Shown here in pieces: positions 571-51,632 of a stretch of 64,000 nucleotides of DNA; the first letter of the stretch is position 1, and each line of letters opens with the position of its first letter. A model generated the notes under the pieces. That model saw only the letters and a list, made by a program, of their open reading frames with translations, was not told where the DNA came from and did not search any database. Location: the NCBI GenBank assembly GCA_951406725.2, contig OX597819.1:3162001-3226000 (forward strand), in the 5' to 3' direction. A program made the translations under genes and the position numbers. This DNA comes from Octopus vulgaris. Taxonomy: Eukaryota.

Positions 571-3500
571 CTATAATTCTTCTCTTGATAAGCCTAGTAG
601 CCGTTTTTGGGCCAATAGAACTTTTTCCCCTTTCAAGGAACGAGATTGCAATTTCTGTGACTCTGGTAATTCAGAGGTTAAATCTTTTTCACTTTTATAA
701 TGGCGGGATAACATATCCTTCTGTATGAATATGTTATTCTTAAGAAGACCTATACTATCATAAGCATTAGTTTCATTAGGTAGTAATGTTGAAGACTGAT
801 CAAGGTTACCTGGTGCATTTTCAGAATTTTCTTTCTTTTTGTGGGGCAATGTTTTGTAGTGTCTTGTTCTTTGTGCTGGGTCTGAACCCAGAAATTCATC
901 CTGCTGATAGCTGGGGTCTGAATTGAGTACAGAGTATTCACTTTGACCCTTTTTAAGAGTTGGATGAAGTAAGTCAGTAGGTTCCTCTAAACTCTTTTGT
1001 TTTTTAGACTTTGATTGAAATTTAGCTAAAAATTTCATTGAAGTGCTTTTCACAAGACCAGGTCCTGAACTCTTGGGTGGTACTTCAGGTTTTTTTTGGT
1101 TTCCTTTTTGTAGAAGTTCAACTGATTTCCATTTTTTCTGTGAAGATTTTTTATTTACATTCCCATCATCCTCAGCGCTTATATTAGCTTTTTCAGAGGA
1201 TTGAGGAGAATCTGGAGTTTTTGAGGGTTTTTTCTTTTTTCTTGGTAAAGAATTACTTTTACTGAAAGTGGGTGGTGTTTCCTCATATGACCATTGTTCA
1301 GTTGGTCTATTTTCATTAGCATTAGCTTTTTGCTTAATATGCTCAGGGGCTTTGATTTCATAATGATCTTTATTTGATGCAAGTGGAATTGTATCTGCTG
1401 AACTTTCCAATTTCTGCATGTTTGGAGATGAAGGCTGAGTGCTTTGAGTTTTTGGAAGTATCAACGAAAAGTCTTTATTTTCATTATCATTGAGAGTGTC
1501 TATCTGATGTGGTTTTCCATGCTTTGATCCATCAAAAGCAATTGCTTCTTGTGATGAGCCATGAAGATATCTGGTGTCAGACTCACTGGAATTAATATCA
1601 GAATTGTTTCTCTCTAATGAAAAAGCAGTATTTTTTGATAGTTCCATGCTAATTTCAGATGTGTGTTGACCAACATTTTCGATATTTGAATTGGCTCCAT
1701 ACTGGATAGTTGACATAGAGTCCAAGGAGGTTGTAGCAAGGTATTGAATATCAGGCTGACTTTCAGGTTTTTCTATTTCAACTGTTTTGGCTTTTGCAGA
1801 AATGACAACCTGAGGATCAGATATGGTTTGAAAAGAACTGTCAGGAAAGTCTTTTGAACTGGTATCACTCTTAGCAGGAAATTCTGTATTATCCGAAAAT
1901 TGCTTAGTTTCATAGTCCTTCCTCTTTCCAGGGCTTCTTGGTATCATTGATTGGATTCTTTCTCCTTCTGTTTCATATTTGGTTTTTATCAATGTACCTG
2001 AATCTGGTGCCACTAATTTCAGAGCAGATTTATTGGGTTTCATGAAAGTGGTATCAAATGTGTTAATTTCTTCTCCAAAGATTTCTTTACGTATATTTAT
2101 GGAAGGACTTTTTGGCAAATTTGTAGTTTCCTTTGGAGAAGCTGTTACAAGTATGTTTTTTGGTGTAATAGTTGTAAAGTTTTGAGTTTGCATATCAGAT
2201 GAAGCATATGACTCATGTGAGAATTCTCTATTGACAGTATTGCTGTAATTTGACTGTGAGGGTGATAATGTTGAAAAACTGTTCAAGTTGTTGTTTTCAG
2301 TTGAGAGATCCTTCACATCAACATTCACCTCACATTTTGGACTTTTTAATTCACTACTGTCTTTTAGATCAAATGAAGGAACATCTTTCATCAACAGTAT
2401 GGGGGAATCCTCTTTATCCTTATAGAAATTTGGTTGTACATAACTTGTTGATTCTACAGAAACAATTTTAGAAGGGGAGGAAAGAGAATTATTCTCAGTT
2501 ACCGAAGATTGCGGAAGGGCTGTTTGATAAGAACTAATTGAATAATTTGGAAGTTCACTGTTATTTTCAGGTGATAATTTCATGGATACATTTTCTTGAT
2601 GGCATAGCTCAAAACTGGACTCTGTAAGTTCTGGGGTATTGTTTGAATTGATAGGAAGTTTAGTTGAAATCATTGACGACTCCTCAAAAATCTCATTTGG
2701 CCCTTCTTCTTTTTCATTATATACTTTTAAATTTGCTACTTCAGCAGTTGTCTCTTTGTCCAACTCACGTCCACTTAAAGTAGTTTGGGGAGAAATATTT
2801 AATGATTCACTTGTTTGATTATTGGAATGTATTGGCTGCTCAGAAATATTTAATCTGTCTTCACTTTTAGATTGCAAAGCATCTAAACCAATAGCAAATG
2901 CACGAGGCTTTTCAGATGTTTCCTTCTGATAAGTAACAGAAGAATCATTTGCATCAGTTTTAACAACCTGCATAAAAGAACTGTCTGCTTTTGAGGCCTT
3001 CAAGTTGTTCTCAAAATTTATTTCAGGAGACTTTATCTCTGGAGTAGCTTCTAGAGTTGTCAAATCAAACATTTTTGCATCAGATTTCCCATCTATATCT
3101 GAATTAAATTGATTTTGTACAGATGTAGTTGTAGATATATATTTTTTATTTGGCACTAAATATATAGAGGCACTATTTGAGGTAGTAGAGAAACCATTCA
3201 AAGATGGCTGTGTTTCAACAGAATGTTCCATTAAATTAACAGTTTCTGTCTTGGGTTCAGCATCAACATTGTCCTTTGTCAGCTGTGATGGAGAATTTGG
3301 AAGGCTAACAGAAAGACTTGAAGTATAAAGAGGTTCAGATGATTTGGTAGTAGAAATAATTATTTTAGAATTTTCTGTTACATGTGGCATTATTACAGAT
3401 TTTGGTGGGCAGTCCTGAATGAATTCAGATTTTCCTTTAGATTCTTGTTGATCTTCAGAGAATCTTTCATGAATTGCAGCTCCTTGTTCTTGATCCACAA

Positions 3501-6500
3501 CTACTTCTTTAGTAGTTTTTAATACATAGCTTTCTGAATTCTCACCTCCTTTGGCTGGAGAATGGGTTGTTGACAATTCAGTTTGGAAATATTTAGTATC
3601 ATTTTTAGAATCAGTAGGTATTTCTGATAAATCTTTATCATTAAATGTTTCTATTCCTTTATCTTTTATTGGTATTTCAATTGCCTTCAACTTTGTAGAA
3701 TCAACACCTTCTTCATTAAATGTTTCTATTCCTTTATCTTTTATTGGTATTTCAATTGCCTTCAACTTTGTAGAATCAACACCTTCTTCATTAAATGTTT
3801 CTATTCCTTTATCTTTTATTGGTATTTCAATTGCCTTCAACTTTGTAGAATCAACACCTTCTTCATTAAATGTTTCTATTCCTTTATCTTTTATTGGTAT
3901 TTCAATTGCCTTCAACTTTGTAGAATCAACACCTTCTTCATTAAATGTTTCTATTCCTTTATCTTTTATTGGTATTTCAATTGCCTTCAACTTTGTAGAA
4001 TCAACACCTTCTTCATTAAATGTTTCTATTCCTTTATCTTTTATTGGTATTTCAATTGCCTTCAACTTTGTAGAATCAACACCTTCTTCATTAAATGTTT
4101 CTATTCCTTTATCTTTTATTGGTATTTCAATTGCCTTCAACTTTGTAGAATCAACACCTTCTTTTATGTTCGTGTAAGCATCTACATAATTCTGCATATC
4201 CAGAGGTTTACATGTTAATGTTTCATTCATTTGGTTTGTCTTTAATTCATTTAAGCAAGAGGGGCTATCAGTGTTATCCTTAACAGTTGTTTTATTCATA
4301 AAGGTATAAGAAGTATCTTGGGAAGGTACAAACAAGGGACTTGAAGCTAAAACTCTTGGCATTTCCACTTCATTTTCTGTTGAAGAATATGCAATACTGT
4401 TGCATTTCTCGGGGGATTTTGTTTTGCTAATATTATCATTGTTAGGTGTAAGAGTAACATCGACTGAAAGTTTCTTTGTTTCAAGCATTTTATCTTTTCT
4501 TGAAGTTAAAGAATTTTCATGAAAATCACTTTCATTTACAGTAATTTCTTTTGGAGCTTGATAAGGTGCTGACTGGGTTTGAGAGATTAACTCAACAGAG
4601 TTTGTCTCTTTCGAAAAAGTATCTGTTAAATTATTGGAGTTATCGAAAGTGGTATCAAATTTGGTCAAGCTTTCTTGGTGACTTCCAGCTAAAGAATCAC
4701 TGCTGATGTTTTCTGAATTAGAGGTTTCAGAAAAATTCCAGGACACTTGTGTTTGAGTTGCAGGAGTTTCCAATGAAAAATTGTTATTTTGAAGATCTTT
4801 TAATGATGCTATTTCTAAGTTTTCCTCACTAAAATTCTGTTTTTTCTCAAATGTTTCTTTTATGACTGGTGAATATTGCTTTTGTAATTTATCCTCAGTG
4901 ATTTTATGGGCTATGTTTTCTGATGTTTCTACACTTGGCTTTTCCACAGTAACAGATTTAAAATACATAGAATGTTCAATTTGGCATTTTTCTTTCTCAT
5001 TAATAAAATTCTCTTCTCGGTCAACTATATGGCTATGTGATTGTGGCTGTTCATCAGATTCTGACTGCATCTCTTGCTCAAATTCTGATAGTATCTCTTC
5101 CTCAGATTCTGAGGGTGTCTTTGAATCAGATAACTTTGAATCTTTAGCTGTTATTGAAACACTTTCATCAACAGCATTATTTATGGAAACTGATGCATTA
5201 TAAGGATCTTGATACCGTATATTGTCAGAACTTATCTTGCTACCTACTTCAACTGATTTTAATTTAGTTATGTTTATATTTGCTTTATCATCTGGTAAAA
5301 ATTTAACTTGACTTTCAGTTTCAACAGTTTTAGTATGAGCAATTGATTCAGTGTTTGGTGGATCTCTTTCAATGTTTGCCAGTTTTAATCGAGCAATTTC
5401 CAGCAAGAGTTCATCTCGACTCAAATCTTTATAGTTTTGCATTTCTGAACTTAAATTACTTGTTTTTGGAAGAGAATGTACTTCAGGAGCCACTGCTTTA
5501 GATAAATAATTTTGTTTTGAATGTGATTGTGCAGGAGTTTTACGTTGAGTTAATTGGATTGGTTTTACTGTGTGGCTGGTGACACTGCTTTCTAGACTTT
5601 GAGTACCTTCAAAGCCCAGAAATTTATTATCATTGTAACTTTCTAAACTAATTTGAACACTTCCTGGATCTACACAGTCTGTGTAATCATATTCCGTTTC
5701 AGTTGCCCCGGTGCTTTTGTTTATTGATTTTATGTTTGCAATGTCATCTTCACCTGCCTCAAAAGAATAGAAACTTTCTTGATCAAAGCTTATATCAGTT
5801 GGAACTGGTTCACTACCGTCAACAATCTTTACATTTGATGTAGCCTCATTCATAGAAGTATAAGCTTCCTGGTTAAAGTTTTGGTCATGTTGTGTATCAT
5901 TCTGCTTCTGGGATGACATAAGAAGATCTATTCTTTGAGACCAAAGGGGCCTTGAGCTGTTATTATTATTATCTTGTGGAATATTCAAAGACTGATACCT
6001 ACTTTCAGATGTTTGATAATTAGAGATTGACGTACTAATTTGCTCATTATTAACCTCCTTATTATATGACAAACTACTTCTTTCACAATTAGGTTTTTCA
6101 GCTGATTCTCTTTCTTTTCTCATAGCTTGCAAATTATAGAGCCTTTCTTTAATTTGGTCAAGACGATCAGCAGTAGCTGCTGCTTCAGTACTCATAGCTA
6201 CAGGTGTCATCATCCCTGAATATTTGTGAGGAGTAACACATGTTGAAAAAGAGCGTTTCAGTCCATGTATTGAACTATAACCATAATCATACTCTGATGT
6301 TGTGTCATCAAAAGGGCCGTCATCGAGACCATCCTCATTGAGATGGCTATACATTGAAGAATCATAATCATAATTTGATGCTGTTGATAATGAGTAAGTA
6401 CGTTGACGAGGTCTCCAGGAATAATCGTAATCCTCATTCTCAAATCTGGAACCATACATAAATCTTTCATCAACAGTTGCAGTAGAGCTAACACTACCTG

Positions 6501-6945
6501 TAGGGGAAAGTATAGGGTCTTTTGATGAATTGTCAATAAACTTTCTAGCACCTATCCTTGCTGGAAGAGTGCTATATATATCTTTGCTTTGAAATCTTGA
6601 AAACTTGTGTTCAAACTGTTGATTTTTTGATAAAGCATCATCTCCAGTAGGTACATTTCCAGTCTTTATACTTCTAAATTCTTCCAGATCATTTGCAAAA
6701 CGTGACTCATAGTCATCTGTTACACCTGAGCGTGATAAACCTTTAAAGTCTCTGTAACGACGTTCTCTTAATCGTTGGAGTTTTCTTAGCCGCTGTGTTC
6801 TTTCTCTTTTCTCTTCATCATCAGGAAAGTGTATGTCTTTTGGTACACATTCCTCTGTAATTGTTGAGAAAGAGAGATTTGGCTTTGAAGTAGATCTCCT
6901 CAAACTTGTAGTAGGCCTGTATCTCTGTCTTCCAGAGGAATACAT
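571..6945 (-). CDS. Large uninterrupted ORF, 2124 aa; mostly S/E/K/T/N-rich and probably disordered, with a conserved N-terminal charged-helix motif; function unknown
   Basis: 6.4 kb of open frame in AT-rich DNA. First ATG is at 6945 in the context TTGAAAATG (the track's TTG start at 6951 is unlikely in a eukaryote). In-frame upstream TGA at 6985-6987 with no AG acceptor between it and the ATG. TAG stop at 571-573. N-terminal motifs are shared with the ORF at 51006-51632. Confidence 0.9.
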   Translation of the reverse strand: MYSSGRQRYRPTTSLRRSTSKPNLSFSTITEECVPKDIHFPDDEEKRERTQRLRKLQRLRERRYRDFKGLSRSGVTDDYESRFANDLEEFRSIKTGNVPTGDDALSKNQQFEHKFSRFQSKDIYSTLPARIGARKFIDNSSKDPILSPTGSVSSTATVDERFMYGSRFENEDYDYSWRPRQRTYSLSTASNYDYDSSMYSHLNEDGLDDGPFDDTTSEYDYGYSSIHGLKRSFSTCVTPHKYSGMMTPVAMSTEAAATADRLDQIKERLYNLQAMRKERESAEKPNCERSSLSYNKEVNNEQISTSISNYQTSESRYQSLNIPQDNNNNSSRPLWSQRIDLLMSSQKQNDTQHDQNFNQEAYTSMNEATSNVKIVDGSEPVPTDISFDQESFYSFEAGEDDIANIKSINKSTGATETEYDYTDCVDPGSVQISLESYNDNKFLGFEGTQSLESSVTSHTVKPIQLTQRKTPAQSHSKQNYLSKAVAPEVHSLPKTSNLSSEMQNYKDLSRDELLLEIARLKLANIERDPPNTESIAHTKTVETESQVKFLPDDKANINITKLKSVEVGSKISSDNIRYQDPYNASVSINNAVDESVSITAKDSKLSDSKTPSESEEEILSEFEQEMQSESDEQPQSHSHIVDREENFINEKEKCQIEHSMYFKSVTVEKPSVETSENIAHKITEDKLQKQYSPVIKETFEKKQNFSEENLEIASLKDLQNNNFSLETPATQTQVSWNFSETSNSENISSDSLAGSHQESLTKFDTTFDNSNNLTDTFSKETNSVELISQTQSAPYQAPKEITVNESDFHENSLTSRKDKMLETKKLSVDVTLTPNNDNISKTKSPEKCNSIAYSSTENEVEMPRVLASSPLFVPSQDTSYTFMNKTTVKDNTDSPSCLNELKTNQMNETLTCKPLDMQNYVDAYTNIKEGVDSTKLKAIEIPIKDKGIETFNEEGVDSTKLKAIEIPIKDKGIETFNEEGVDSTKLKAIEIPIKDKGIETFNEEGVDSTKLKAIEIPIKDKGIETFNEEGVDSTKLKAIEIPIKDKGIETFNEEGVDSTKLKAIEIPIKDKGIETFNEEGVDSTKLKAIEIPIKDKGIETFNDKDLSEIPTDSKNDTKYFQTELSTTHSPAKGGENSESYVLKTTKEVVVDQEQGAAIHERFSEDQQESKGKSEFIQDCPPKSVIMPHVTENSKIIISTTKSSEPLYTSSLSVSLPNSPSQLTKDNVDAEPKTETVNLMEHSVETQPSLNGFSTTSNSASIYLVPNKKYISTTTSVQNQFNSDIDGKSDAKMFDLTTLEATPEIKSPEINFENNLKASKADSSFMQVVKTDANDSSVTYQKETSEKPRAFAIGLDALQSKSEDRLNISEQPIHSNNQTSESLNISPQTTLSGRELDKETTAEVANLKVYNEKEEGPNEIFEESSMISTKLPINSNNTPELTESSFELCHQENVSMKLSPENNSELPNYSISSYQTALPQSSVTENNSLSSPSKIVSVESTSYVQPNFYKDKEDSPILLMKDVPSFDLKDSSELKSPKCEVNVDVKDLSTENNNLNSFSTLSPSQSNYSNTVNREFSHESYASSDMQTQNFTTITPKNILVTASPKETTNLPKSPSINIRKEIFGEEINTFDTTFMKPNKSALKLVAPDSGTLIKTKYETEGERIQSMIPRSPGKRKDYETKQFSDNTEFPAKSDTSSKDFPDSSFQTISDPQVVISAKAKTVEIEKPESQPDIQYLATTSLDSMSTIQYGANSNIENVGQHTSEISMELSKNTAFSLERNNSDINSSESDTRYLHGSSQEAIAFDGSKHGKPHQIDTLNDNENKDFSLILPKTQSTQPSSPNMQKLESSADTIPLASNKDHYEIKAPEHIKQKANANENRPTEQWSYEETPPTFSKSNSLPRKKKKPSKTPDSPQSSEKANISAEDDGNVNKKSSQKKWKSVELLQKGNQKKPEVPPKSSGPGLVKSTSMKFLAKFQSKSKKQKSLEEPTDLLHPTLKKGQSEYSVLNSDPSYQQDEFLGSDPAQRTRHYKTLPHKKKENSENAPGNLDQSSTLLPNETNAYDSIGLLKNNIFIQKDMLSRHYKSEKDLTSELPESQKLQSRSLKGEKVLLAQKRLLGLSREEL
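3638..4162 (-). repeat. Coding minisatellite: 7 exact copies of a 75-bp unit encoding EGVDSTKLKAIEIPIKDKGIETFN(E/D)
   Basis: Unit tcattaaatgtttctattcctttatcttttattggtatttcaattgccttcaactttgtagaatcaacaccttct is repeated 7 times, in frame with the large ORF; I found no mismatch. Confidence 0.97.
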
Positions 6946-7479
6946 TTTCAATTTTTTTTTTTTTTTAATGAATTTATGACAGAATCATATAAGGAGACCG
7001 ATAACTTTTTATAAAATTTTCATTAAAGAGCCACAACAGTTGATGAAAAAATATTTAAAATCATTGCACTTTGGAGAAAATTAATACAAAGTTAAATAAT
7101 ACTCATGAATCTAAGGCAATTATTTAAAAACATTACCGTGCTTGAATAATTGCTAAATTATAAATGTTAAGAACATACCTTCGATAGAAATTACTTGGAA
7201 CAGAAGAAAGATTAGAATATGTTGTGTGCTTCGTTATGTTTTGAAGTTTAAGATAAAACAGATTTCCTTTGTAGATTACGATTTTTATAATGTAAATCTG
7301 TCCCTGAGTATGTGTTGTGAAGTTTTGGGTATACAATCATCAAATAAATCAATATGTTGTTTTTTTTCCAGCTTATTTTGTTAACTGCAAAATCAGTTTT
7401 CTTTTCCTGTGTCCTTTTCAAGTGAAGCCAACTATATCAAACCAGTTCTTGATAGCATGTATACTGTCATAAGCACATC

Positions 7480-7540
7480 GTAATGCAGAAGGCGGGACGT
7501 AAGCTACAAGTAAGGACTCCGCTTGTAGCCAATAGGAAGG
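7480..7540 (-). promoter_or_regulatory. Candidate promoter region of the large ORF (GC-box-like GGCGGG, CCAAT, local CpG cluster)
   Basis: AGGCGGGAC near 7490, CCAAT at 7529-7533 and several CpGs in otherwise CpG-poor DNA, about 550 bp upstream of the ATG. Confidence 0.3.
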
Positions 7541-10308
7541 AAGACTACTGTCAGCTTTACAGATATACATTGTACACAAGTTTGATAATAGGCCAAAGTC
7601 AGGTAGCAGCAGTTGGAAGTAAAGTATATGTTAAAAAAATATATCAGAGTAGAAGGGACAGCTAGCATTTCACCATATGCTGGTCTGATTGTCTACTTCT
7701 TTATAGATTTATTTCTGCTGGCTGGTGAGACAGTTATTTTAATTTTACTCTAACAATCAGGTTTCCTTATAATTATTTAGTTAATGTAGCTAAATAAACA
7801 TCAACCTTCAGGGAGAGGGGGGGGGGAAGATATTAATTCACGTATATTTCTACACTGATATTCAGTTCAATAAAGGTAGTATTTATGTTGCTGCTACTGA
7901 TTAGAGCCGATCTAATTCTGAGTACAACAACTATAATGTAGGCATGCCCAAACTCAGCATATAGTCTAGTTTTCCTTACTACGTTCTAGCATGTTCATAC
8001 TTATTTTATTGATTATGAAAGGCTAAGATACAAACACAGAAGTGTAATGTGTGAATCACTCATTAATTATACAGTCTATGTTGGAACTTGTCATTTGAGT
8101 CATTAAAACCAAGTTGTGTTTGGATGAAATGTGTTAACATCTATAATCTGAAAAAGTACATTTTTTTCTTGAATATGAGAGGAAAAGAAACTGTTGCTTG
8201 CTATGTCACAAGATATTTTTATAAAGAAGTCTTCCCTGTTGATCAATTTGCAAAATTATCTTACAAGGTTATCTTACAAGGAAGCTCTCTCTATTGATTA
8301 ACCTGTAGATTTGATTAGGAGTCTTCTGGATATTTTGATTATTTGATTAGGCAGAATATGGCTGTGCTGTTCCCCCCCCCTATAAAACCATTTTAGATTT
8401 TTGATGAGTCCATTTATTTATATATGAACATCACATTGATTACAAAAGTTACTCCCCAGAAGCTTTATCACCTATTACCTGTGGAGAGTCATGTATGCAT
8501 GTTGTATTTGGCTAAGAATTAGCTACCTATATAGTTGTGTGACAAGAGGTGAGAAATTCTGTATTCATCATCAACAAATGATTAATTTTAACAAGATGTC
8601 TTGCAGTGACTGAGCATCCTGTCATCTCAGGGCTCCCTGAAACTTGTGTTGATTGTCCTGCACTTCTTTATAACCATGCTTTAGTGGGAAACTATGGAAC
8701 TTTTCATTGATTGTATGACTGCAGCCATAATATGATTGGTTATCAGTTAGACTGACATTACCTAATATGCTGTAGCCTATTTCTCATTACTGAGTTCTAA
8801 ACACTGCTACAGATCTTTACCAATTATATAGTTGATACTAAGTTAGTTCTGACTGAGCAGATCTATAACCAAAGGCATTTCAGTAATGACTATCCTATAT
8901 TTTTATCAGGCTTGATGTAACTTAGACAACATTTCTTTTGAAGATAGGGTGTGGTATGAGATTTATTTGGTTTCTAATTATGGCAGGTCAAGTTACTGCG
9001 TAAATACTTACTATTGCTTTGTATTCCATCAAATGTAAAGCAATGAAATCTATATTTTAATAAATCAAGACATAAACTCAACTTGTTCAGTTATTTTTTT
9101 GTATTCTAAGGTAAAGGAATTGCCGTATACGGATTAAATCGTTGGCCATAAAAAAGCTGAGTAATCTCATTGATCCTTTCTACTTGAGGCGCAAGGCCTG
9201 AAATTTTGGGGTGAGGAGCGAGTTGATTACATTGACATCAGTACTTGACTGGTACTGCTTTCATTGACTCAAAAGCAAGACAAGCAAAGAATTTGAATTC
9301 AGAACATAAAGACATTTTGTCCAGTGTGCTAATGATTCTGCCGGCTTGCCACCTTAGGACTCGAATTAATAATGGTCTTTTAGAAAAAGTTTGTTTCGGT
9401 GAGAGTAAAAGGGCTTCCCTCTCTGTTAGTGCCAGTGTGCAAAAACAGTGGAGATTTTAAAATATGTGGAGACATAAAATAGTCTTTATCTAACAACAAA
9501 TTAATAGTCTATTCTCTTTCTGGCATGGATTATTTTGCTAAAAAAGAAGACAAGAAAATGTCCAAAAGACTAAAGTGTTACTATTGCAAATAGAGAAAAT
9601 CTAGAAATAGAAAAAAATAATAATAAAGTGATTTTTGAACCCTATCCAAGATATCATCTTCATGTAGAAGATACCACCCTTTCCAAGTTAAACTGATGCA
9701 AGGATTTGATTTATCAATTATAAAGTATTCTTGCAACCTAGAGTTCAGAAATAGATCTTAACTTATTTATTTGCAGCTGAATAATTTGGTCAGTGGAAAA
9801 TGTTTATGGTGTGATATGAACAATCCATCTTTCAGTTTGCAAACCAATATAATTACAACTGATATAATTGAAACTCTTATAGCAAATTTACAAATACAAA
9901 CATACACAAATTACTGAAATATTTGAAGATGATTTTTTCTTCTTTTTTTTTATCACTATTCAAAACCAGGGAGATAACTTTGTCAAGGAATTATATTTAG
10001 ATAATTGTTCTCATATTCTTATACAGTTAACCTTCACAAGAGTACATCATGATAACTGAATTCATATACAAAACCATGACATATTTAGCAATCTCTAATT
10101 CTTTTGTAGAAACACCAGAGAAACAAATCAGTGTTTCTCTATTGTCTTCATGAGCCTTTGCCAGTTTGAGTGACCATTTGTTTTTTTCTTTGTATTTGGT
10201 CAAGGATGTTTGTTAGGAAAATAGTAGCACTGTTTTAGATATGTGAGAAGTTCTTCAATATGTGTTATACAAACTGTGGAGAATTACCAACTAATCAGAG
10301 CTGAAGTA

Positions 10309-15376: not shown

Positions 15377-15415
<39 letters not shown>

Positions 15416-24318: not shown

Positions 24319-25355
24319 CCCTTTCGTTACTATATTTCTGACCAAATTACACCCCTTATGTGTTTCAATTAATTTCTAACGTAATCATAAATTTAGTCTG
24401 GTTTCATTCAACAACTATAACTTTTTTATTTATCGATATATTAATCTGATTTTTGGAAGATAATTTAATGAAATATTCTCAATCAATTCTATACTATAAT
24501 TTTTGTCACAAAGTGACTCTATTTGCAGGTAGATACAGGTAAATTCCACAAAATATAAAATTATTAAAATTTTGTTCAAACATCGCTATAGAAAATATTA
24601 GCTAATATTCAATTGGGTATACAACAAAATTTTACGATAGAATTTGTTATTCTGGGTAACTTTCTGATACCCATAATAATATTTATGGCAAAATAGGCCT
24701 TAATTTCATTTAAGGTTGTGGGAAATAACAAACTATCCTTTCTTTCGTTTTGTTTACATTTAGCGTAACGGTTCGTTTTCGCTGTAATGATTTCAAATAG
24801 GCTCATTCGAAAAAGTAAATAGAAATAGCCTAAGGCTTTACCCTTCTGGGAAAGTCTGTGGCTTGGTCCAGTTTCTGCAGAAAAATCACCGAAAGAAACA
24901 GTTTTTAAATTTTCACTCCATTCAGGTGCCAATTCGTTTTCTTTATTGCTATCGGAGATCTCAGATTCACTGTTTTCACTTTCGGAAAATGAAACATCAA
25001 ATTCATTATCAAATACCATCTGCTTTTTTTTTCAGTCATAGAGTTAGATTTATGAAGGTCTTCAGTAGAAAATCCTTCGAATTCTGACTCGCTGCTTGAT
25101 ATAATGAAATTCGTATCCATTTTTTGTCAGAATTACAAATTTTGAAAACACAATAGGAACAAATTTCGGAAAAAAATCTCCCAAAATTCACGGAATTAAA
25201 ATTACACTTCGATTATTGTACAAAACTGTAGTTGAACTGTTTACGAAGTATAATACGTGTTTTCACGAATGTACTGAAGAGATTTGCTCTGATATTCTCA
25301 TTTAAATATGAATAGGTAAATTCGGGCGGCTTTGGGCGGTTTGGTAACGAAAGGG
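24319..25355 (-). mobile_element. Internally deleted piggyBac transposon with both TIRs, TTAA TSD and a transposase N-terminal remnant
   Basis: TTAA|CCCTTTCGTTAC ... GTAACGAAAGGG|TTAA. ORFs 24905-25120 (MDTNFIISSSESEFEGFS) and 24609-25019 (GP...YFYLLF...TNRYA...TTLNEIKAYFAINIIMGIRKLPRI) are the frameshifted PGBD-type N-terminus. No DDD catalytic core. Confidence 0.93.
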
Positions 25356-33094: not shown

Positions 33095-33701
33095 AAAGGT
33101 AGACAATATGATGCTTGTGTACAAACAGCTATACTCTATGGTAGTGAGACATGGGCTCTGAATACTGAAGACATGTGTAGACGGGAGAGAAACGAAGGTA
33201 GTATGCTCTGTTGGATGTGCAACATCAGTGCACATGTACGACAAAGTACAAATGTATTGAGAGAAAAGCTGGGCATAAGAGGAATCAAATGTAGCATGCA
33301 AGAGAGAAGACTACGTTGGTTTGGATATGTGATGAGTATGAATGAGGACAGCTGCATAAAGAAGTGCTGGTCACTGAAAGTGGATGGCACCCATGAAAGA
33401 GGGAGACCCAGGAGGATGTGGGATGAAGTGTTAAGGACTGATCTCAGGAAGTTGGACTTCACAGAGGAAATGACCATGGACCGAGATGTCTGGCGATATG
33501 AAGTTCTTGAGAAGACCTGCCCACATCAGTGAAACTGAGTTGTAGAAGCATCGTGTGTCCCACCCACAAGAGAACTTCTCACACACTCTACCACAACGAA
33601 CCAAACTACATCCCTTCTCTTCCTAACACTTCCAATTCGTGTACTATGATTACCTCCCACTCCTCAGTCTTTTCCTCTTGACCTGGTACCACTGTATCAT
33701 T
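33095..33701 (+). mobile_element. RTE-LINE ORF 3' end and part of the 3' UTR; inverted duplicate of 35920-36526
   Basis: Encodes YDACVQTAILYGSETWAL...ERRLRWFGYV...RGRPRRMW and is near-identical to the reverse complement of 35920-36526. Confidence 0.92.
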
Positions 33702-34970: not shown

Positions 34971-37540
34971 ATCATCATCATCGGCATTTAACATCTGTGT
35001 TCCATGCTAGCATGGGTGGGACGGCCCCACAAGTGCCAGCCAGGCCGAAGCCTGCACCAGACTTCTGTGACTGTTTTAGCAAGATTCTTACAGCTAGATG
35101 CCCTTCCTCACATCAACCACTCAGCAGAGTGGACTTAGTGTTTTTTACGTGGCACAAGCACAGGCAAGGGCAGTTTTGGCAAGGTTTTTACAGCTGGATG
35201 CCCTTCCAAACACCAACCTCTTTACAGTGTGGACTGGGTGCTTTTAAGTGGCACCTGCACTGACAGAGTCACCAAGCAATTGCAAGACAAAAACTTTTAA
35301 GAGGTGGGGGTGAGACAGATAAAGGTGTCTTACTGTAGAGGAAGTACAAGGTTACCTGGCCTGAGAGAGAAAGATCAGAAATGAAGACAGAAACAGGTGT
35401 GCTACTGCAAAGAAAATACATAGTTGCCCAGCCTGAGTGAAGTGAGAGAGAGAGGGGGGAAAGAGAGAGAGAGAGAGAGTGGGAGACCACAGGATGGAGA
35501 CAGTGGTAAAATGCTGGACATATTCACGAGGAGTGGGGATAAGTGTATAAATGAGATGGTTGAGTAAAGGAAGAGAGAGATAGAGATGGTGGCAAGTGCC
35601 AGGGCATACTCTTGAAGTTCAAATGCCATAATATAAGTGATAGGATATCATGAAGGGAGTGTGATTAAAGAGTGCAAGTAAGTGGTGAAAGACCTGGGCA
35701 TATATAGAGTTGGAGAGGCTACCGGATAGCAATGATAGAAAGGACAGGATTGGGGAGTGAGAGCTAGGCATAATGATGCAAGAAAGAGATGTAGATTGGA
35801 TTGTTGGGGTAGGGAGGTAGAAAAGTTTTTTTGTTACATGTCAGAGGCTAGCAGATGACAATAATAGCATGAGACATGGCATGTGGGTATAATGCACAGG
35901 TCAGGGGCAAGCAGAGAGCAATGATACAGTGGTACCAGGTCAAGAGGAAAAGACTGAGGAGTGGGAGGTAATCATAGTACACGAATTGGAAGTGTTAGGA
36001 AGAGAAGGGATGTAGTTTGGTTCGTTGTGGTAGAGTGTGTGAGAAGTTCTCTTGTGGGTGGGACACACAATGCTTCTACAACTCAGTTTCACTGATGTGG
36101 GCAGGTCTCCTCAAGAACTTCATATCGCCAGACATCTCGGTCCATGGTCATTTCCTCTGTGAAGTCCAACTTCCTGAGATCAGTCCTTAACACTTCATCC
36201 CACATCCTCCTGGGTCTCCCTCTTCCATGGGTGCCATCCACTTTCAGTGATCAGCACTTCTTTATGCAGCTGTCCTCATTCATACTCATCACATATCCAA
36301 ACCAACGTAGTCTCTTCTCTTGCATGCTACATTTGATTCCTCTTATGCCCAGCTTTTCTCTCAATACATTTGTACTTTGTTGTACATGTGCACTGATGTT
36401 GCACATCCAACAGAGCATACTACCTTCATTTCTCTCCCGTCTACACATGTCTTCAGTATTCAGATCCCATGTCTCACTACCATAGAGTGTAGCTGTTTGT
36501 ACACAAGCATCATATTGTCTACCTTTCATTCTGAGTGAGAGGCCTTTTGTTGCTAAAAGAGGTAATAGCTCTCCAAACTTCCTCCACCCAATTCCTATTC
36601 TAGAGGCAATACTTTCGGAGCATCTTCCACCATTGCTAATTTGGTCACCTAAGTAACAGAAACTACCTATAACCTCAAGAGAGCCTCCCGGGCATTTGAG
36701 AGAATCTAATTCCTGTGTGCTCTTAGTGCTTATTAACTTTATCTGTTAATCTACCTGTGATTCCACTGCACCTCTTATGTGTCCATAGTTTACACAGGAT
36801 GCAGCGAATGGAATTTCTTCCAACTCCTTTCCTACATATGGACCAAGGTCATTTACCTGACAGAAAGAGAGTATTATCTTCTTTCTTCCTAACAACCACT
36901 TTTGTCTTAGTTAGGTTAACTTTTTGAGGCTCTTTGATTCCAGGCTTTGTTTCCATACCTGAAATTTCTTCTCCAATATTGCTAAAGCTTCTGCAATAAG
37001 GGCTAGGTCATCAGCATATAGTAGTTCCCAAGGGCACCTATTTTTGAATTCCTCTGTCATGGCCTGGAGGACTATAATGAATAATTATATTGAGAACTGA
37101 GCCCTGGTGAACCTCCACCTGAATGCTAAATTCATCACTGTATTCATGGCTGACTCTCATGTTACTGACAGCACAACTGTACATGGCTTGGACAGCTCTA
37201 ATAAGCCATTCCTCTACTCCTAACTTCCTTAAAGACTACCATATAACAGCAGGAAATTCTGTCGAAAGTTTTCTCCAGGTTGACAAAGGCTAAGTACAAT
37301 GGCTTACTTTTGGCCAAGTACTTTTCCTGCAGCTGTCCCACAAGGAAGATGGCATCTGTGGTACTCTTCCCAGGTACAAAACCAAACTGCATCTCATCTA
37401 GTTTAATTCTGTTTCTAATCAATTGAGCTCTAACCCTCTCAGTAACTCTCATGACATGGTCTAATAGTTTAATACCTCTGTAGTTGTTTCTATCTAAGGC
37501 ATCATCTTTACCCTTATAGCAGCTAATTACAATGTTACTG
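34971..37540 (-). mobile_element. 5'-truncated, degenerate RTE-clade LINE (RT domain through 3' tail)
   Basis: NYRGIKLLDHVM, DEMQFGFVPGKSTTDAIF, PWELLYADDLAL (near 37000-37035) and LYGSETW; (GAT)n tail at 34971; stops and frameshifts. Confidence 0.92.
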
Positions 37541-40081: not shown

Positions 40082-40134
<53 letters not shown>

Positions 40135-43272: not shown

Positions 43273-43421
43273 GGCACAGGAGTGGCTGTGTGGTAAGTAG
43301 CTTGTTTACCAACCACATGGTTCCGGGATCAGTCTTCCGGTAAGTGTCTTCTATTATAGCCTCGGGCCGACCAAAACCTTGTAAGTGGATTTGGTAGACG
43401 GAAACTGAAAGAAGCCTGTCG

Positions 43422-43486
<65 letters not shown>

Positions 43487-43681
43487 ATGTTTGTGTGTCT
43501 GTGTGTGTTCCCCTAGCATTGCTTGACAACCGATGCTGGTGTGTTTACGTCCCCGTCACTTAGCGGTTCGGCAAAAGAGACCGATAAAATAAGTACTGGG
43601 CTTACAAAGAATAAGTCCCAGGGTCGATTTTCTCGACTAAAAGCGGTGCTCCAGCATGGCCACAGTCAAATGAGTAAAGAG
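43273..43681 (+). mobile_element. SINE family A
   Basis: Matches the consensus, with a small deletion after the B box. Confidence 0.88.
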
Positions 43682-43779
43682 TATACTGTATTACAGGAAA
43701 AATAATGTGTTATTTAGTATTGAAATACTTAAATGTACTATGTAAATCACACACACACACACGAATTATAAGAGGAATT

Positions 43780-44250
43780 AGATGCAGTGTGCAAGAGAGA
43801 AGACTGCACTGATTTGGTTATGTGATGCAGATGGCTGCTGACAGCTCAATAATGGAGTGTTGATCTCTCAAAGTAGATGGAAGATGTGGAAGAGGGAAAA
43901 CCAGGAAGACATGGGATGAAGAACTGAAGAATGACCTTTCAAATGAGATGACAAAGGACTTAGACACCTGACACCTCCACAGCAGAAATGTCAAGCCCCA
44001 CCCCTGGTGAAGAGGGTTGGCCTGCAAGAGTCGTGAGCCAGTGCCATGTAGAACCACTCTTGCAGTGCTACATTAAAAGCACCCAGCACAAACTGTGAAG
44101 AGGTTGGCATTAGGAAGGGCATCCAGCAGCAGAAACCATGCCAAATCAAACTAGAATCTGGTGCAGCTCACCAGTTTGCTGACTCTGGTCAAACCATCCA
44201 AATGATACCAATGTTGGAAAATAGATATTAAATGATGATTATGATGGTGA
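43780..44250 (+). mobile_element. RTE-LINE 3' fragment
   Basis: Encodes VQERRLH*FGYV...GRGKTRKTWDE, followed by the shared tail. Confidence 0.75.
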
Positions 44251-44395
44251 TATATAAGTGAAAAAGTTCCTGAATCTAAGGAGACCACAAAAAAAAAAAT
44301 CAAATTGGAGGACACCCACCCCAAGTTCTTTTACATAATTAACTGATCGTCCAGTATTCTCTTTTACCCAAAGCCAGAAACTTCTCAGTATCCCA

Positions 44396-44430
<35 letters not shown>

Positions 44431-44490
44431 ATTATATTGTCATATATACATATATAGTTATGCAATATATATACTTATATATATGTGTGT

Positions 44491-44528
<38 letters not shown>

Positions 44529-44534
44529 ATAGGT

Positions 44535-44765
44535 ATATATACTTACACCAAAAATTATTTACATCAAAAAGGTGCTTTTTTCTATGAAAATCCCTATTTT
44601 TTACGATTTTTTGACTGCTGTGTCGCCACTTTTCGGTGTATTTCAACCAGAAAAATGTTCACTTGAAGAGAATAACAAGCTACATAATGCAAAAATTTTT
44701 ACTTTTCAAAAATTCCAATTCCAGCGGGTCGAAACAAACCCGAGCAACGCTGGGCGATACTGCTA

Positions 44766-44766
<1 letters not shown>
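44535..44766 (+). mobile_element. Helitron-like 3' terminal fragment
   Basis: GC-rich hairpin CCCGAGCAACGCTGGG (44739-44754) lies 8 nt before CTAG|T (44763-44767), the canonical Helitron 3' end architecture. CpG-rich relative to its flanks. Confidence 0.65.
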
Positions 44767-44809
<43 letters not shown>

Positions 44810-45019
44810 TAGCAGTAAGTGGAAAAGTAAAAAGAAAAGAAAATGCACTTGGATAAAAAAAATTAAAGGCTTTTTTAAGAAAAGCTTTCTCAAAAAAGCG
44901 TTTTTTTTTTTTCTAATGTGTATTTTCTTTGTTTTCTTTTTACTTTTCCTCTATTTATACCACATATATTTTTTCCTTTGAAACCTATTTCCATTATATA
45001 AATACATATATATATAATA

Positions 45020-45058
<39 letters not shown>

Positions 45059-45319
45059 CAAAGTGAAGTTGTAAGGTACCGCATGAGTGGAAATATATAT
45101 GAAAGAAGGTTTGAAAATGCAATTTTAAAGTGTGTGTGTGTGTATATGCGTTTGTTCACATGTGGGTATGTGTTGGTCTGTAAGAAAACCACACACACAC
45201 TAAAAAAAAAAAAACACACACACATATACTCACAATACAATCCCAACAACCACAACAAACACTCACGAACACATACACACAAGCATGCACACACACACCT
45301 CCCCGACAAATACAAGACA

Positions 45320-46175
45320 CTGCAGTCCCTCTTTCAGAGCTTCCTTGCAACTTCCAAGAAGATTGAAGGAGGGTAAAATATGTCCTATTCATCAAAGAGG
45401 TAGCAGAGAGGAGGCCAAGAAACTACAGACCTATCTCTCTGACATTGCACATCAGCAAGGTCATGGAACGAATAGTCAGAAGAAAACTAAACACCTTCCT
45501 TGAAGAAAATGACTTGCTGTCTGACACCCAACATGGTTTCCGACCAGGAAGGAGCTGCTTGACTCAGCTCTTAAAAAACTTTGACAGGGTGCTGAAACAG
45601 CTGCTCAACCGCTCAATTGTGGAAGTGATATATCTCAACTTTACAGGCGGGCTGAAAAGAATAGCATGCAGTTTAACACTACAAAGTTTCAAGCCTTGTG
45701 CTATCAGCATGCAAAACGAAATGCAATACTCATTAAATACACTGGACCAGGAGGGATTGCAATCCCAGAGGCACAGTCAGTACGAGACCTGGGCATTTAC
45801 ATGAGTAATGATGCATCCTTCCATGTGCATGTTGCTAAATTGGCAATGAAATGCAGGTGGCTCACCAGATGGATTCCTAGAACTTTTAGAACAAGAGACC
45901 AGGAAACTATGATGGTCCTCTGGAGGACACTTGTCCTAAGCCACTTTGACTATTGCTCTCAGCTATGGTCACCATCCAGTGTCAAATTAATCTCAGAACT
46001 TGAAGCAATCCAACGAAGCTGCACGAAAAAGATAGCCTCTGTGCAGCATTTAAGCTACTGGAAAAGACTCAAGAGATTAAGACTATTCCTTAGAGTGTAG
46101 GCGAGAAAGATATGCCATATAATACATCTAGAAGATCCTGGAAGGACTTGTCCCAAACTTTGGCATCATAGAAGG
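45320..46175 (+). mobile_element. CR1-like LINE RT fragment with an internal deletion
   Basis: NYRPISLT, TQHGFRPGRSCLTQL and VIYLNF, then a jump to MQFNTTKF, VRDLGI, DYCSQLWSP and LEAIQR. The YADD core is missing. Confidence 0.88.
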
Positions 46176-46179
46176 CAGC

Positions 46180-47212
46180 TAGGAATTCCTGCAAGACAGC
46201 TTGCTGAGTGCCACAGACCAAATCTGTGGCTGGTGCAAAGTCCCTTCTAGACCTAAGGTAACATGGTGGTGGAACAATACTGTAGATAGGGCTATTAGAG
46301 CAAAGAAACAGGCTTGGAAGAGTAGGGGTAGCAGGAGAATGTATTAGATAGCCAAAAGGGAAGCTAGGAGACAGGTATATATAGCGAAGGGAGTAGCAGA
46401 AAAGAAGTCTGCCAATGTTCAACGACATGAGGACCAAAGTACTGAAGTATTTTGGATTGCAAGACTGTGTCAGAAAAAAAACCATGATGTCAGAGGAGAG
46501 AAATGTGTCCACTTGGATGATGGTGCCCTTGCGTTTAATGATTCTGCAAAAAGAGAGGCTTGGAGATGCCATTATGAAAGAATGCTGAAGGTGGAGAATA
46601 AATGGGAGGAGGAGAGTCTGCCAAAGGTTGATCTGGCTGAGAGACCAGCTACCCGAATTGACAGTACCCTGGTAGATAATATTAAGGATATGAAGACAGG
46701 AAAAGCACCAGGCCCATCAGGAATCCTACTGAAATGCTTAAAATATCGAGTGGTGTGGGTTATGGTCTTGTTATCCGTATCATAAATCAGGTGGTTCATG
46801 AAGCAGTCATACCCAATAACTAGTGTAGCAGCACCATAGTCAACTGCTACAAGGGTAAAGGTGATACTTTAGATGGAAATAACTACAGGGGTATCAAATT
46901 ATTGGATCAGGTGATGAAAGTTACAGAGAAGGTTATAGCCCAACTAATTAGGGACAGAGTTAACCAAGATGAGATGCAGTTTGGTTTTGTACTAAGCAAA
47001 AGCACCACTGATGCTATATTTCTGGTAAGGGATCTGCAGGAGAAATACCTAGCCAAAGATAAACCTCTGTGCTTGGCTTTTGTTGACTTGGAGAAAGCTT
47101 TTGACAGGGTCCCCTGATCGCTTAACTGGTGGTCAATGCAGAAACTGGAGATAGATGAGTGATTGGTAAAAACTGTACTAGTCCTATACCGGGATGCTGT
47201 TAGTAAGGTGTG
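46180..47212 (+). mobile_element. RTE-LINE internal fragment
   Basis: MKTGKAPGPSGI, NYRGIKLLDQVMKV, DEMQFGFV..KSTTDAIF and AFVDLEKAFDRVP. Confidence 0.88.
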
Positions 47213-47239
47213 TTTATATACATATATATATCATAGATG

Positions 47240-48150
47240 GTCAAGGACCCTGATGATATACAAGCACTGCAAACAAACTGAATACAATATACTGATGAAA
47301 ATAGCATGCAGTTCAATGCTGTGAAGTTTCAAGTTCTCCAATACCAGCCCACAGACAGACTACAATTGGAATACACAAGCCCAAGAGGTAGTGCAATCCC
47401 AGAGTTAGAGTCGGTGTGTGACCTGGGAGTCCACATGAGTAATGATATAATATTTCATATGTGTATTACTAAGATGGCAACACTGTACAAGTGAGCAGTT
47501 AGGTAGATTCCAAGATCATTTCAGGACCAGGAAAAAGGATACCATGCAACTCCTATGGAGAACTTTTGTTCTCAGTCATCTGGATTACTGCTTCCAACTG
47601 CGGTCATGCATAGCATCAAACTGGTGGTGAAACTTGAGGTAATCTAATGCCACTACACAAAGAAAATTGACTCAGTAAAACAGATGAGCTACTGGGAGAA
47701 GCTAAAGGAACTGAAGCTCTACTCACTAGAGAGGTGTAAAAGATATGTAGTGATATACATATGGGAAAACCCTGAAAACTAGTTCCCAACTTCAGGATTA
47801 AAAGCTATACCAACCAACGAACTAGATATAGTACCAAAAATCCCACCTCCTCCATCTCAAATAAAGAGCTAGTACTGTAATAGTTTAGGTTTCAAGGATC
47901 CACAACTGTTCAATATTCTGCCAAATAACTTCAGAGATTTGTGAAGTGTAGATGTGAAGGTCTTCAAAGAATATCTGGACAAATTTTTATCTGACATACC
48001 AGATGAACCTACATCATGGCAGGAGGCACAAAGAAGAGCAGCCCCGTCCAACTTGTTACTTCACCAGAAACAGTAGAGAAAAGAGACCCAAAGACACTAA
48101 AAAGTAGTGTTCAGCATTACTTCAGCTTCTGGCTGAAACCATTAAAAGAT
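47240..48150 (+). mobile_element. Second, more decayed CR1-like LINE 3' fragment
   Basis: MQFNAVKFQVL...DLGVHMSND is collinear with 45666-46100 and continues to the ORF end (GFKDPQLFNILP, LDKFLSDIPDEP). Confidence 0.8.
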
Positions 48151-48339
48151 ATATTATATATTGGACCACCGGAAGAAATGTATTGAAAATCAAAGAGACT
48201 ATGTCTAAAAATGATATAACAGTTCAGTCTCTGCTTTTGCTTTTACAGAAACAAGAGTGTGTATAACTTTTTACTTACCCTCGTGTGTGTGTGTGTGTGT
48301 GTGTGTGCATGCACACACACACACACATATATAGAGTGA

Positions 48340-48770
48340 ATATGGCCCAAGATGTGGGTGTTGAAATCTCAAGGAGAATAAGGGCAGGATAAAAGGCATT
48401 TACCTTGATAAAAGATGTTCTCAAAGCAAAGCTGGTGAAGATCCTAAGGGCCAGTCTCTTCAACGGTATTGTTCTACCTGCACTATTATAAACAAGTGAA
48501 ATGTGGATTACTATGAAGAAGGAAGAACATCCATTAGCGACAATGCAAAGAGCCATGGAAAGAACATCATTGTGAGAGCAGATCTGAAATGGAGCGAAAT
48601 CTATGATGTGACTGCAGAATAGCAGACATGCTGCAAGGTTTGCAGACAAGAGGTGAAAGAGGGCAGTTGGTGAGTGGTATCCAAGGGATTGAAAAGGTCA
48701 CTGAGAAGGCCACCATGGGAATGGGAAGGCAATTTAGTTGAACAATTTGGGCCAACATGGAAAGAAGTGT
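48340..48770 (+). mobile_element. Decayed RTE-1-like LINE fragment of a different family
   Basis: Plus frame reads EISRRIRAG*KAF...LFNGIVLPALL*TSEMW...MQRAMER. Confidence 0.65.
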
Positions 48771-49229
48771 GCAATCAAAAATGAATTGGAAGTGCATTGT
48801 GATCAGTGATATACAACAACATCAGATAGCCTGGTTGATCCAGGTGGTATTTATGTGTGTGGGACAGATTAAGCATAGTTGTGAGGCCAAGAAGTTTGCT
48901 GTAAAAATCCAAGTTCAGTCCTTCTGTATGACACCTTAAGTGTGACTGTCTTCTACCAAGGCCTTGTGAGTGGTTGGGGATACGGAAATGGAAAGAAGGC
49001 CCTCGTGTTTGTATACACACTCATACATACATACAGTATATGTATGCATGTTCATATATGTGAACAAAAATGTGCAAAACAAGGTGGAGAAAAGAGCACT
49101 CAAACACCAAATAAACAATAGAATGTAATGCTTTATTGAAGCTGATAAACTTCATAACCTGTTATTCTGAGTTTTAGGCAATTTTTCATTAGACAAAAGT
49201 GGACTTTGGAACACTGTGGTCTATGAATG

Positions 49230-49232
49230 TAT

Positions 49233-49291
<59 letters not shown>

Positions 49292-50130
49292 CACATACAT
49301 ATAAATTTACATACATACAAACATGTACAGACACATACATGTTCATGTGTGTAAATATATATTTGTATATATATGTGTGTGTGCATGTACATATCTGCAT
49401 ACACATATATACATATGTTCCTGTGTATATATACACACACACATAAAACACATACATATATACATAGTTTTACACATATATTTATCTATCAACCTCTGTG
49501 TGTATGTGTGTATATATATATATGCACACACATACACACGTACATGCATTTATACATATATATCCAAACAGTGCTACATACAGATATATGTATACTTATA
49601 AATATTAATATTTGATTTTATGTTCACTTATAATAAAAACAAATTTTACATTCATCTGATGGAGTACTCAATACTTTTGTAAGGAACGAATTTACTGTTC
49701 CTATGCAAGATTACTATTGACAGTGACTTCGAAGTATCGGGAATTTGAGCCATCGTCGGACATCCCGACGATGGCTTAGCTGGCCGATACTTCGAAGTTA
49801 CTGTCAGTAAGATTCTTGTTTAAGAATGATAAATATATTTATAAATATACGTAAATGTATATACAAGTGTACATATATATAAATATGTATGTATGTATGT
49901 ATGTATACTTATATATGTATTTAAATTCACACACATACACGCAGGTACATATAAATATGTATACTTTTGTACGCAGATGTACATACTTTTTATTTACATA
50001 CATACACAAACATGCACTTAACACACACACAAACAAACACACACATACATATATACATTCATATATCCATACACCAACATATATACCCTCACTCTCTCAC
50101 ACGCACCTGTACACGTATGTATGGTTGTGA
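49230..50130. repeat. Compound (CA)n/(TA)n/(TACA)n microsatellite-rich tract
   Basis: Directly visible. Similar tracts occur at 40030-40470 and 44400-45300. Confidence 0.9.
49715..49809. other. 95-nt near-perfect inverted repeat (hairpin)
   Basis: TATTGACAGTGACTTCGAAGTATCGG pairs with CCGATACTTCGAAGTTACTGTCAGTA. Inner TGAGCCATCGTCGG pairs with CCGACGATGGCTTA. Confidence 0.9.
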
Positions 50131-51005
50131 GAGTTTGTTTAAATCTATTCCAAGTTGTCTGTTGTTCAAAAACAGTTAATGCCTTTAGTTGTATTGATCA
50201 TATCGTACCATACAAAACTGTAGTCGGTTACAAAATGAAACCAGCACAATTTTCCCATAAGCAAAGTATATGAAAATAAAATAAAGTAATCTAAGTCTTG
50301 TTGTAGATATTTGAATAGATTAAGGAATGTTCTGGTTTTCTGGAAGAGGAACTAAGCAAAGTGGTAAGACAAACACATGTGTACATAATTTCAATTCTCA
50401 ACATAGCAAAACACTTCAAATGTAATACGTGTTACTAATTAAGCATCTTGGCAATTTTAAAGAAAAATGATAATAACAACTTTATAATTATTATAGCAAC
50501 AACAAAGAAATGCAAGGGATCGGTTTCAGTATTGGACATTTAGGTTTATATCGTTTATAAAGACTGTAATAAAATCCCGTTACGAAATTAACGAAATAAA
50601 CAAAAACAAATTAATGAAACCAACAAAAAAGTAATATTTTGATATTCCTCAATATGGGAATGGTTTTTTTTTTTATACAATTTCTAGTTTTAACCAAATA
50701 ATATTTGTTATAACGTAAAGTATAAAATCAAATCAATATATGATATTTTGTCAATTACAACTTCCTTCACCTTTGACACATCAAATTAAAATCTGGAAGA
50801 TAACACTTTAAGACTAACTTGACAAACAATGGACTTTTGATTCCTTACGATAAACATTTGTTTTCGAAATAATAAGAAAATTCAAATCTCATTCCTGTTG
50901 ATTGTTGATGATGAAACGTCTGTGAATGCCAGAGTTAAAACTAGATTTGCCGTCGATGATAAGAAATCTTCCAGCTTCAATTAACATTCTAATTAACTTG
51001 TAAAC

Positions 51006-51632
51006 TCATTCTTCAGCATTCTCCGCTTCTTCGTTGGTAATTGTTATATCTGGAATAGCAAAGGATTCAGTAGAGTTTTCTTCTTCAATGCTGTTTTCGC
51101 TGTTTGATTGTTTTTCTTGAATTTCTTTTTGTAGAGCCGAAGACTTCAACCTGAGTGCGCTCAGTCTCTCATTCACTTGCTCAAGATTGTCAACAGCCGT
51201 ATTGAGTCCTTCCGTGGCTGAAAAGGTGCTATGTCCGTTTTCATCTCTCATTCGCTTCAATTCTTCCATGCGAGTCCTTGTATAATCTTCATTTCCGAAA
51301 AACAGATTTTGTCGAATTTTAGGGGAAGTATCAGGGCTAACATCGAAGAGTGGTGGAAGAGGTGACAATGCTCGTGGAATTGGTGAAGTTGCTCTCTGTT
51401 CGCGGCTCTTTTTGATTTCTTTAAGTGTTTGCATGTCACTTTCCAATCGACTCCCATAGTCATCTAAATAACTAGACTTTCCATTTGGACCCACCTTTCT
51501 TACAGACCGGGAATCGTGGAATCGTCTTTCTCGAAGCCGTTCCAGTTGTCTAATCCGTTGAAGGCGATCTTTGTCGATGTGTTCTGGTGGTGGGTTATGT
51601 TCAAAATTAACTGACAGTCGATATTCAGACAT
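51006..51632 (-). CDS. Uninterrupted 208-aa ORF with charged-helix/coiled-coil segments and an acidic tail; paralogous to the N-terminus of the 2124-aa ORF
   Basis: ATG at 51632 in the context TTGAAGATG; in-frame upstream TAA at 51714-51716; TGA at 51006-51008. Non-repetitive, protein-like sequence with motif blocks shared with 571-6945. Confidence 0.85.
   Translation of the reverse strand: MSEYRLSVNFEHNPPPEHIDKDRLQRIRQLERLRERRFHDSRSVRKVGPNGKSSYLDDYGSRLESDMQTLKEIKKSREQRATSPIPRALSPLPPLFDVSPDTSPKIRQNLFFGNEDYTRTRMEELKRMRDENGHSTFSATEGLNTAVDNLEQVNERLSALRLKSSALQKEIQEKQSNSENSIEEENSTESFAIPDITITNEEAENAEE

Follow-up and report, generated by a model that had tools for sequence, protein, structure and literature searches.

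A giant first exon of a PH-actin gene in Octopus vulgaris and a short, probably nested gene that may carry a copy of its putative docking helix

Relation to actin-related proteins and giant-exon isoforms

The closest described relatives of the locus are the actin-related proteins (PF00022), since the long open reading frame (ORF) discussed below corresponds to the 5′ exon of an annotated member gene, O. sinensis LOC115213538. O. bimaculoides LOC106882864 and bivalve and gastropod orthologues belong to the same PH-actin fusion subfamily, which is uncharacterised, as is the octopus gene LOC115213538. In contrast to other PF00022 proteins, a PH domain and alternative N-termini stand in front of the actin fold here, the D-loop is short and the GDG loop is altered. 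The octopus read-through form, the hairpin-led octopus isoform and the motif described below are absent from the database records seen. The C. elegans protein F42C5.9 is a candidate PH-actin relative. In PMC3096668 it is described as actin-related and as located at the membrane of muscle cells, in filament-like and dense-body-like structures, and it is present in a proteomics table of PMC9704757.

Two further systems bear comparison. The giant-exon isoforms of the ankyrins (AnkG/AnkB), as described in PMC9467607, are likewise giant-exon scaffold isoforms. There is, however, no sequence relation. Here the giant exon comes first, read-through can probably end the protein, and there is a nested paralogue of small size. 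WH2, RPEL and SFM (VxxLxxxFE, PMC13364712) resemble the element shared by the two ORFs in being short helices in disordered regions of cytoskeleton-linked proteins. A WH2 or RPEL motif in the shared module was rejected, there being no Pfam match, and SFM was rejected for block 1 by inspection against the consensus in that paper, as the FE pair is missing. A search of the open-access literature returned no paper on the locus identifiers or on a PH-actin fusion family.

The long open reading frame and the PH-actin gene

The window is a 64,000-nucleotide stretch of the O. vulgaris genome (GCA_951406725.2, contig OX597819.1, positions 3,162,001 to 3,226,000). As originally predicted, its list of ORFs contains a long ORF of 2124 aa (571–6945) and a short ORF of 208 aa (51006–51632), both on the minus strand and both with a start that reads TTGAA[A/G]ATGT. 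The two had been proposed as single-ORF genes of a new stand-alone family. For the long ORF this does not hold, as gene models leave it for PH and actin exons and it belongs to a PH-actin gene with orthologues across invertebrates. The gene model CAI9723723.1 (P0014) equals the long ORF over 2045/2045 residues and then continues into PH and actin domains. The O. sinensis, O. bimaculoides and Argonauta models all depart from the ORF at the same point, after ...ENSENAP. There the window reads CCA G/GTAACC, a phase-1 splice donor on the minus strand (CAG/GTAACC, 804–812, cut at 810/809 with 810 the last exon base) that ranks third of the 234 GT sites in the long ORF with a rough donor matrix. The long ORF is thus almost certainly a giant alternative first coding exon of the orthologue of LOC115213538, spanning 810–6945 on the minus strand and comprising 2045 codons plus 1 nt.

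Phase-compatible acceptors for this exon are found downstream at G000:C6 ~3154650, ~3151004 and ~3085660, and the PH and divergent actin-fold exons lie 76–133 kb from the donor at 810/809. The downstream exons follow in order on the same strand as the giant exon, from G000:C6 ~3154650 to 3029199. Fourteen exon segments cover 541/577 aa of the downstream part with one mismatch to this genome; the downstream DNA that was examined lacks two short stretches of the 577 aa. The first 300 aa of the long ORF as a query returned four octopod proteins, all of which (4/4) contain PF00169 and PF00022. The same query run with phmmer against 1.84 billion representatives gave three matches, all long-form orthologues, and a single query of this kind therefore overlooks the bivalve motif described below. 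In the ESM Atlas its top score was just 0.77, which is uninformative, and Pfam searches of both ORFs gave sub-threshold rows only.

Some variation was seen along the gene. Two micro-exons that follow the giant exon (about 10 and 9 codons, at ~3154650 and ~3151004) are skipped or kept depending on the octopus isoform. Within the giant exon, on the minus strand at 3638–4163, lies a coding tandem repeat of 75 bp (25 aa) with a variable copy number: seven units in this genome, one, seven or eight depending on the O. sinensis model, one in O. bimaculoides and none in Argonauta. Elsewhere in the genome, an actin-like cluster of 13 matches, several with internal stops, is located at G000:C27:12580287-12865280.

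The actin domain of the spliced product is recognised by PF00022 at 154–158 bits (cut-off 27) in 4/4 octopod proteins. The PH domain is matched by PF00169 at 29–31 bits (cut-off 25.1) in the octopods and is below the cut-off or absent in five other molluscs. A basic signature, K-Xn-(K/R)-X-R in beta1-beta2, is present in 35/37 proteins. This is the phosphoinositide-binding motif of PH domains, and the PH loop is accordingly predicted from its sequence to bind phosphoinositides. The best PDB matches of the PH-actin part are actins (E 8e-36). The nucleotide cleft is kept, with D/E11, G13, Q137, D/N154, G156 and G301 each present in 17/17 sequences and G302 in 16/17. The marks of conventional actin, on the other hand, fail: the D-loop region has 15–17 residues instead of 23, a histidine occupies column 73 in only 2/17, and in phosphate loop 2 the GDG is changed to G-E/D/Q-R, with G158 replaced in 17/17. 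From the known biology of PH domains and actins, such features predict phosphoinositide binding and no ordinary filaments. The PH-actin product thus belongs to the actin fold family but is not a conventional filament-forming actin.

With the PH-actin part as a query, a search restricted to the longer proteins returned 38 of 1011–2885 aa at E<=1e-20, four from octopods and 34 from bivalves, gastropods, a chiton, a nemertean, a crab, echinoderms and further contigs. ESM Atlas clusters for the same part were from nematodes and arthropods (0.97, 0.92 and 0.91), the top one being a nematode cluster of 557 aa. Two alternative N-termini could be distinguished among the 34. A helical hairpin of ~95 aa without block 1, the first block shared by the two ORFs, is carried by 20 of them, 19 at >=27 bits and one at 11, as scored with a profile built from seven of these same 20. 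In eight others, all longer than 2290 aa (three oysters, four mussels and one scallop), block 1 lies within residues 10–47 and there is no hairpin. Neither element is found in six, and in none do the two occur together (0/34). The eight block-1 bivalves represent three lineages only and the four mussel matches are weak (5.8–6.1 bits); among shuffled or reversed controls 1/714 reaches 5.8 bits, the weakest true score, and 0/714 reaches 10.9. In a tree of 20 C-termini the molluscs group together, and the giant and hairpin forms of Mytilus have near-identical C-termini (branches of 0 and 0.0017), the pattern that isoforms of a single gene should give. No match at E<=0.01 was obtained with BLASTP between the octopus giant exon and the bivalve giant forms, and the cephalopod motifs ALKLVAP, KWKSVE, PEVPPK and TKFETEG are virtually missing from the latter. 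The hairpin profile matched no Pfam family above its cut-off, and its best PDB matches (E 0.013 and 0.032) were generic coiled coils. The hairpin is an ancient N-terminus, conserved as far as the crab and the echinoderms. Conservation of the family from molluscs to crabs and echinoderms opens an actin-related family to study.

The shared module and the short gene

The similarity between the two ORFs had originally been described as four collinear blocks. Blocks 1 and 2 (12/18 and 8/18 identical) read as described, as do the RLRERR codons, of which 5/6 differ. They form a homologous stretch of ~55 aa, located at aa 41–96 of the long ORF (6658–6825, minus strand) and within aa 14–76 of the short ORF (51405–51593, minus strand), where the module includes a PPP motif as in oysters and mussels. 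The Smith-Waterman score of the long against the short ORF is 109. In composition-preserving shuffles 0/2000 reach this value in each of six settings (the whole ORF or its first 300 aa, shuffled globally or in 10- or 20-residue windows), the maximum being 98, so that the similarity is above chance as was proposed. A profile of the long forms matched 3/3 short proteins (E 4e-9 to 2e-6), and one of the short forms matched 4/4 long proteins (E 4e-6 to 1e-3), both at Z=30000. Aligning the two profiles with hhalign gave 95.9%, over a span of blocks 1 and 2 alone. A profile made only from six bivalve N-termini, scanned against the 11089 frames of 264 kb, placed the short ORF at the top (E 9e-8), followed by the long ORF (7e-6) and then by a frame with an E of 0.44. 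There is very little doubt that blocks 1 and 2 are homologous.

The other two blocks fared less well. Homology of block 3 was rejected as coincidence, since NEDY is replaced by NEAY in both short orthologues and by NEEN or TEDN in the three long ones. Block 4 is weak: the long-ORF helix (aa 252–272, 6130–6192, minus strand) has weak homology to the short ORF that is not significant by itself (domain E 5.5 and 56). Both block 4 stretches are helical or coiled-coil-like, and that of the long ORF resembles a second copy of the pattern R-L-x-x-L-x-x-[LM]-R-x-x-R. No DNA-level similarity was found between the 5′ regions of the two ORFs (best E 0.44). No further copy was found elsewhere in the 264 kb. 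A third copy in the genome was likewise not found, there being two matches among nine and among four candidates scored, which are lower bounds. A transposon ORF was considered and rejected, as there is no transposase or reverse transcriptase Pfam match and no multi-copy pattern, G000 containing one self match and the paralogue only. Neither Pfam nor the PDB contains a match to the shared helix, in agreement with the original view that the module could not be assigned. We therefore read the finding as a docking-like motif of molluscs that has no name as yet and belongs to an actin-related family still to be studied, plus a nested short paralogue, and not as a new stand-alone family. The helix of block 1 likely acts as a docking signal. 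It would seem very improbable that generic R/E/L-rich helices converged in two unrelated disordered proteins: pairwise BLASTP gives just E=0.026 and the bivalve-only profile also weakly matches other helices of the short protein, but this reading is already largely refuted by the shuffles, by the significant reciprocal profiles, by the similarity in N-terminal position, locus and strand and by the lack of a third match found in the genome.

The short ORF is conserved in two orthologues, P0003 (83% identical) and the Argonauta protein GAB1608299.1 (P0004, about 67–68%), whose accession adjoins that of the long-gene orthologue, GAB1608300.1. Of its 208 columns 128 are invariant, and the stop and a C-terminal motif are conserved. 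Between Octopus and Argonauta the short protein is 67% identical, compared with 62% for the first and 56% for the second 200-aa block of the giant exon, 20–46% for its middle and 81–84% for the PH-actin part. The 67% identity and the adjacent accessions support the original idea of an old local duplication constrained at the protein level. This duplication would predate the split between the long ORF and P0022 (described below), given that P0022 resembles the long ORF far more closely than the short ORF does.

Contigs from three of four runs span about 50068–52340 without a joint and stop on both sides, beginning at 52319, 52344 and 52170; run X5 has no contig over the region. None of the 20 runs (eight studies) that contain half or more of the words of this region is recorded as RNA. 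The contig sets total 76–95 million letters, for a genome of 2.8 Gb, which suggests a transcriptome origin, and the contigs covering the short gene are probably RNA. They would correspond to an intronless transcript of ~2.3 kb (50068–52344), placed on the minus strand with the ORF, as the contigs give no strand. Three of the four variants of the short ORF among the runs change a residue, and so lend no support to selection. Given its orthologues and this coverage, the 208-aa protein is very probably real. AlphaFold models it with four helices (21–43, 58–82, 115–131 and 139–180) joined by disordered links (pTM 0.23), the long C-terminal helix having a pLDDT of 90–96; it is thus predicted to be a string of short helices and not a globular domain. 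The model has no match in the PDB at E<=0.001, and the best E of the short-form profile against PDB sequences is just 0.16.

Products of the locus and alternative readings

Beyond the donor, the long ORF continues for 79 aa and a stop (571–809, minus strand). This tail and the C-terminus of P0022 agree at 38/83 positions (E=3e-14). P0022 is an ORF of 3864 aa on an ENA contig, and its N-terminus is 43% identical to that of the long ORF. The tail contains a motif, L..N.FI..D (aa 2068–2077, 715–744, minus strand), that occurs once in P0022, in all of the giant forms from bivalves (8/8) and in P0044 from a chiton, and in none of the other 25/34 homologues. As intron sequence is not expected to remain in frame and conserved, the read-through form is probably real, and the unspliced 2124-aa protein is a probable second product of the gene.

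Three hairpin exons were located on the same strand as both ORFs, 12–29 kb past the upstream end of the window. S1, the ATG exon (G000:C6 3255093–3255007, minus strand), has an E of 0.23 alone, with its order and phase being right; S2 (3242717–3242517, minus strand) is matched by the hairpin profile with E=1.2e-9; S3 (3239526–3238320, minus strand, 1207 nt) has AG/GT ends and a phase-1 donor. All three have canonical AG/GT ends, in phases 0/0/1, and the donor phase of S3 is that of the giant exon. A search of G000 with a single protein missed the octopus hairpin exon, S2 being detected with the profile on the fetched stretches. No RNA joining S3 to the PH exons was seen, and no octopod hairpin-PH-actin protein is among the 38 matches, though the search covered proteins of the length predicted for it. 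Since the hairpin exons are upstream of both ORFs, these probably lie inside one intron of a predicted hairpin-PH-actin isoform of about 1060–1075 aa, an arrangement that we consider likely. The annotation is thereby corrected with the upstream hairpin exons and the conserved read-through ending.

The best explanation, to which we give a probability of roughly 0.6, is that the locus combines a giant first exon of a PH-actin gene with a short, likely duplicated copy of its docking helix that serves as a free-standing docking module towards the same partner. The locus would make a hairpin-PH-actin protein of ~1060–1075 aa, a giant-PH-actin protein from the giant exon, a giant read-through form lacking the PH-actin part and, from its own promoter within the intron, the 208-aa protein. 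The basic PH loop would bind phosphoinositides, and the actin fold, with a D-loop 6–8 residues shorter, would act as a membrane-cytoskeleton scaffold that does not form ordinary filaments. The alternative N-termini may determine location or partner, and the helix of block 1, which is charged and amphipathic, may fold upon binding a partner. The short protein, likely duplicated from the 5′ end of the exon, could compete for the partner of the giant isoform or bridge to it; the odds that the two share a partner are about even. It is doubtful, though conceivable, that these form an undescribed family of non-polymerising membrane PH-actin scaffolds, spread across invertebrates, that swap an ancient hairpin and a mollusc giant exon as targeting ends, to which octopods have added two actin-less decoys. 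If true, the decoys (the giant read-through form and the nested 208-aa copy) would tune where the scaffold binds. The hairpin, the block 1 helix and the L..N.FI..D motif, three unnamed conserved elements, could be used as baits, and the short gene is a small natural conserved fragment for probing what the N-terminus of the giant isoform binds.

Less probably, the short protein has diverged to a job of its own, for instance as a coiled-coil adaptor through helix 139–180, and no longer shares the partner. Consistent with this, homology is clear in just ~55 of its 208 aa, the rest is conserved separately, as seen in the 128 invariant columns, and the long C-terminal helix is confidently modelled. 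We consider it unlikely, however, as block 1 hardly varies within either group of paralogues and the bivalve profile scores the short form above the long one, which suggests that the same constraint persists.

The short ORF shares its strand with the hairpin exons and the giant exon and is located between them, which would also fit a further alternative exon of the PH-actin locus that is joined to other exons in some tissues. The region where the contigs start has an acceptor-like site (52333), and there are an in-frame AG before TTG AAG ATG and a strong phase-0 donor-like site at 51494. Such an exon seems improbable, however: the three covered runs contain no joints, the ORF has no good phase-1 donor (best -1.24 of 4), its stop and C-terminal motif are conserved and the Argonauta annotation has it as a separate protein.

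Returning to the short gene as a nested paralogue of the giant-exon N-terminus, several minor features surround it. The zone in which its contigs start contains an acceptor-like T-rich tract (52323–52345, with the CAG at 52333), at which no loose end was seen. At 51777 one contig of run X9 branches into 220 letters, perhaps an insertion allele, the first 30 nt of which are absent from the window, the 264 kb and G000. A 99-bp tandem array (x13, 98% matches) at 52743–54033, 400 bp upstream of the covered region, gives rise to an ORF of 413 aa on the plus strand, probably a spurious one. Further along the window, 33095–33701 and 35920–36526 form an inverted pair (98%). From their translations, we take this pair to be LINE-like, 45463–46100 to be RT-like and 24609–25019 to be piggyBac-like.
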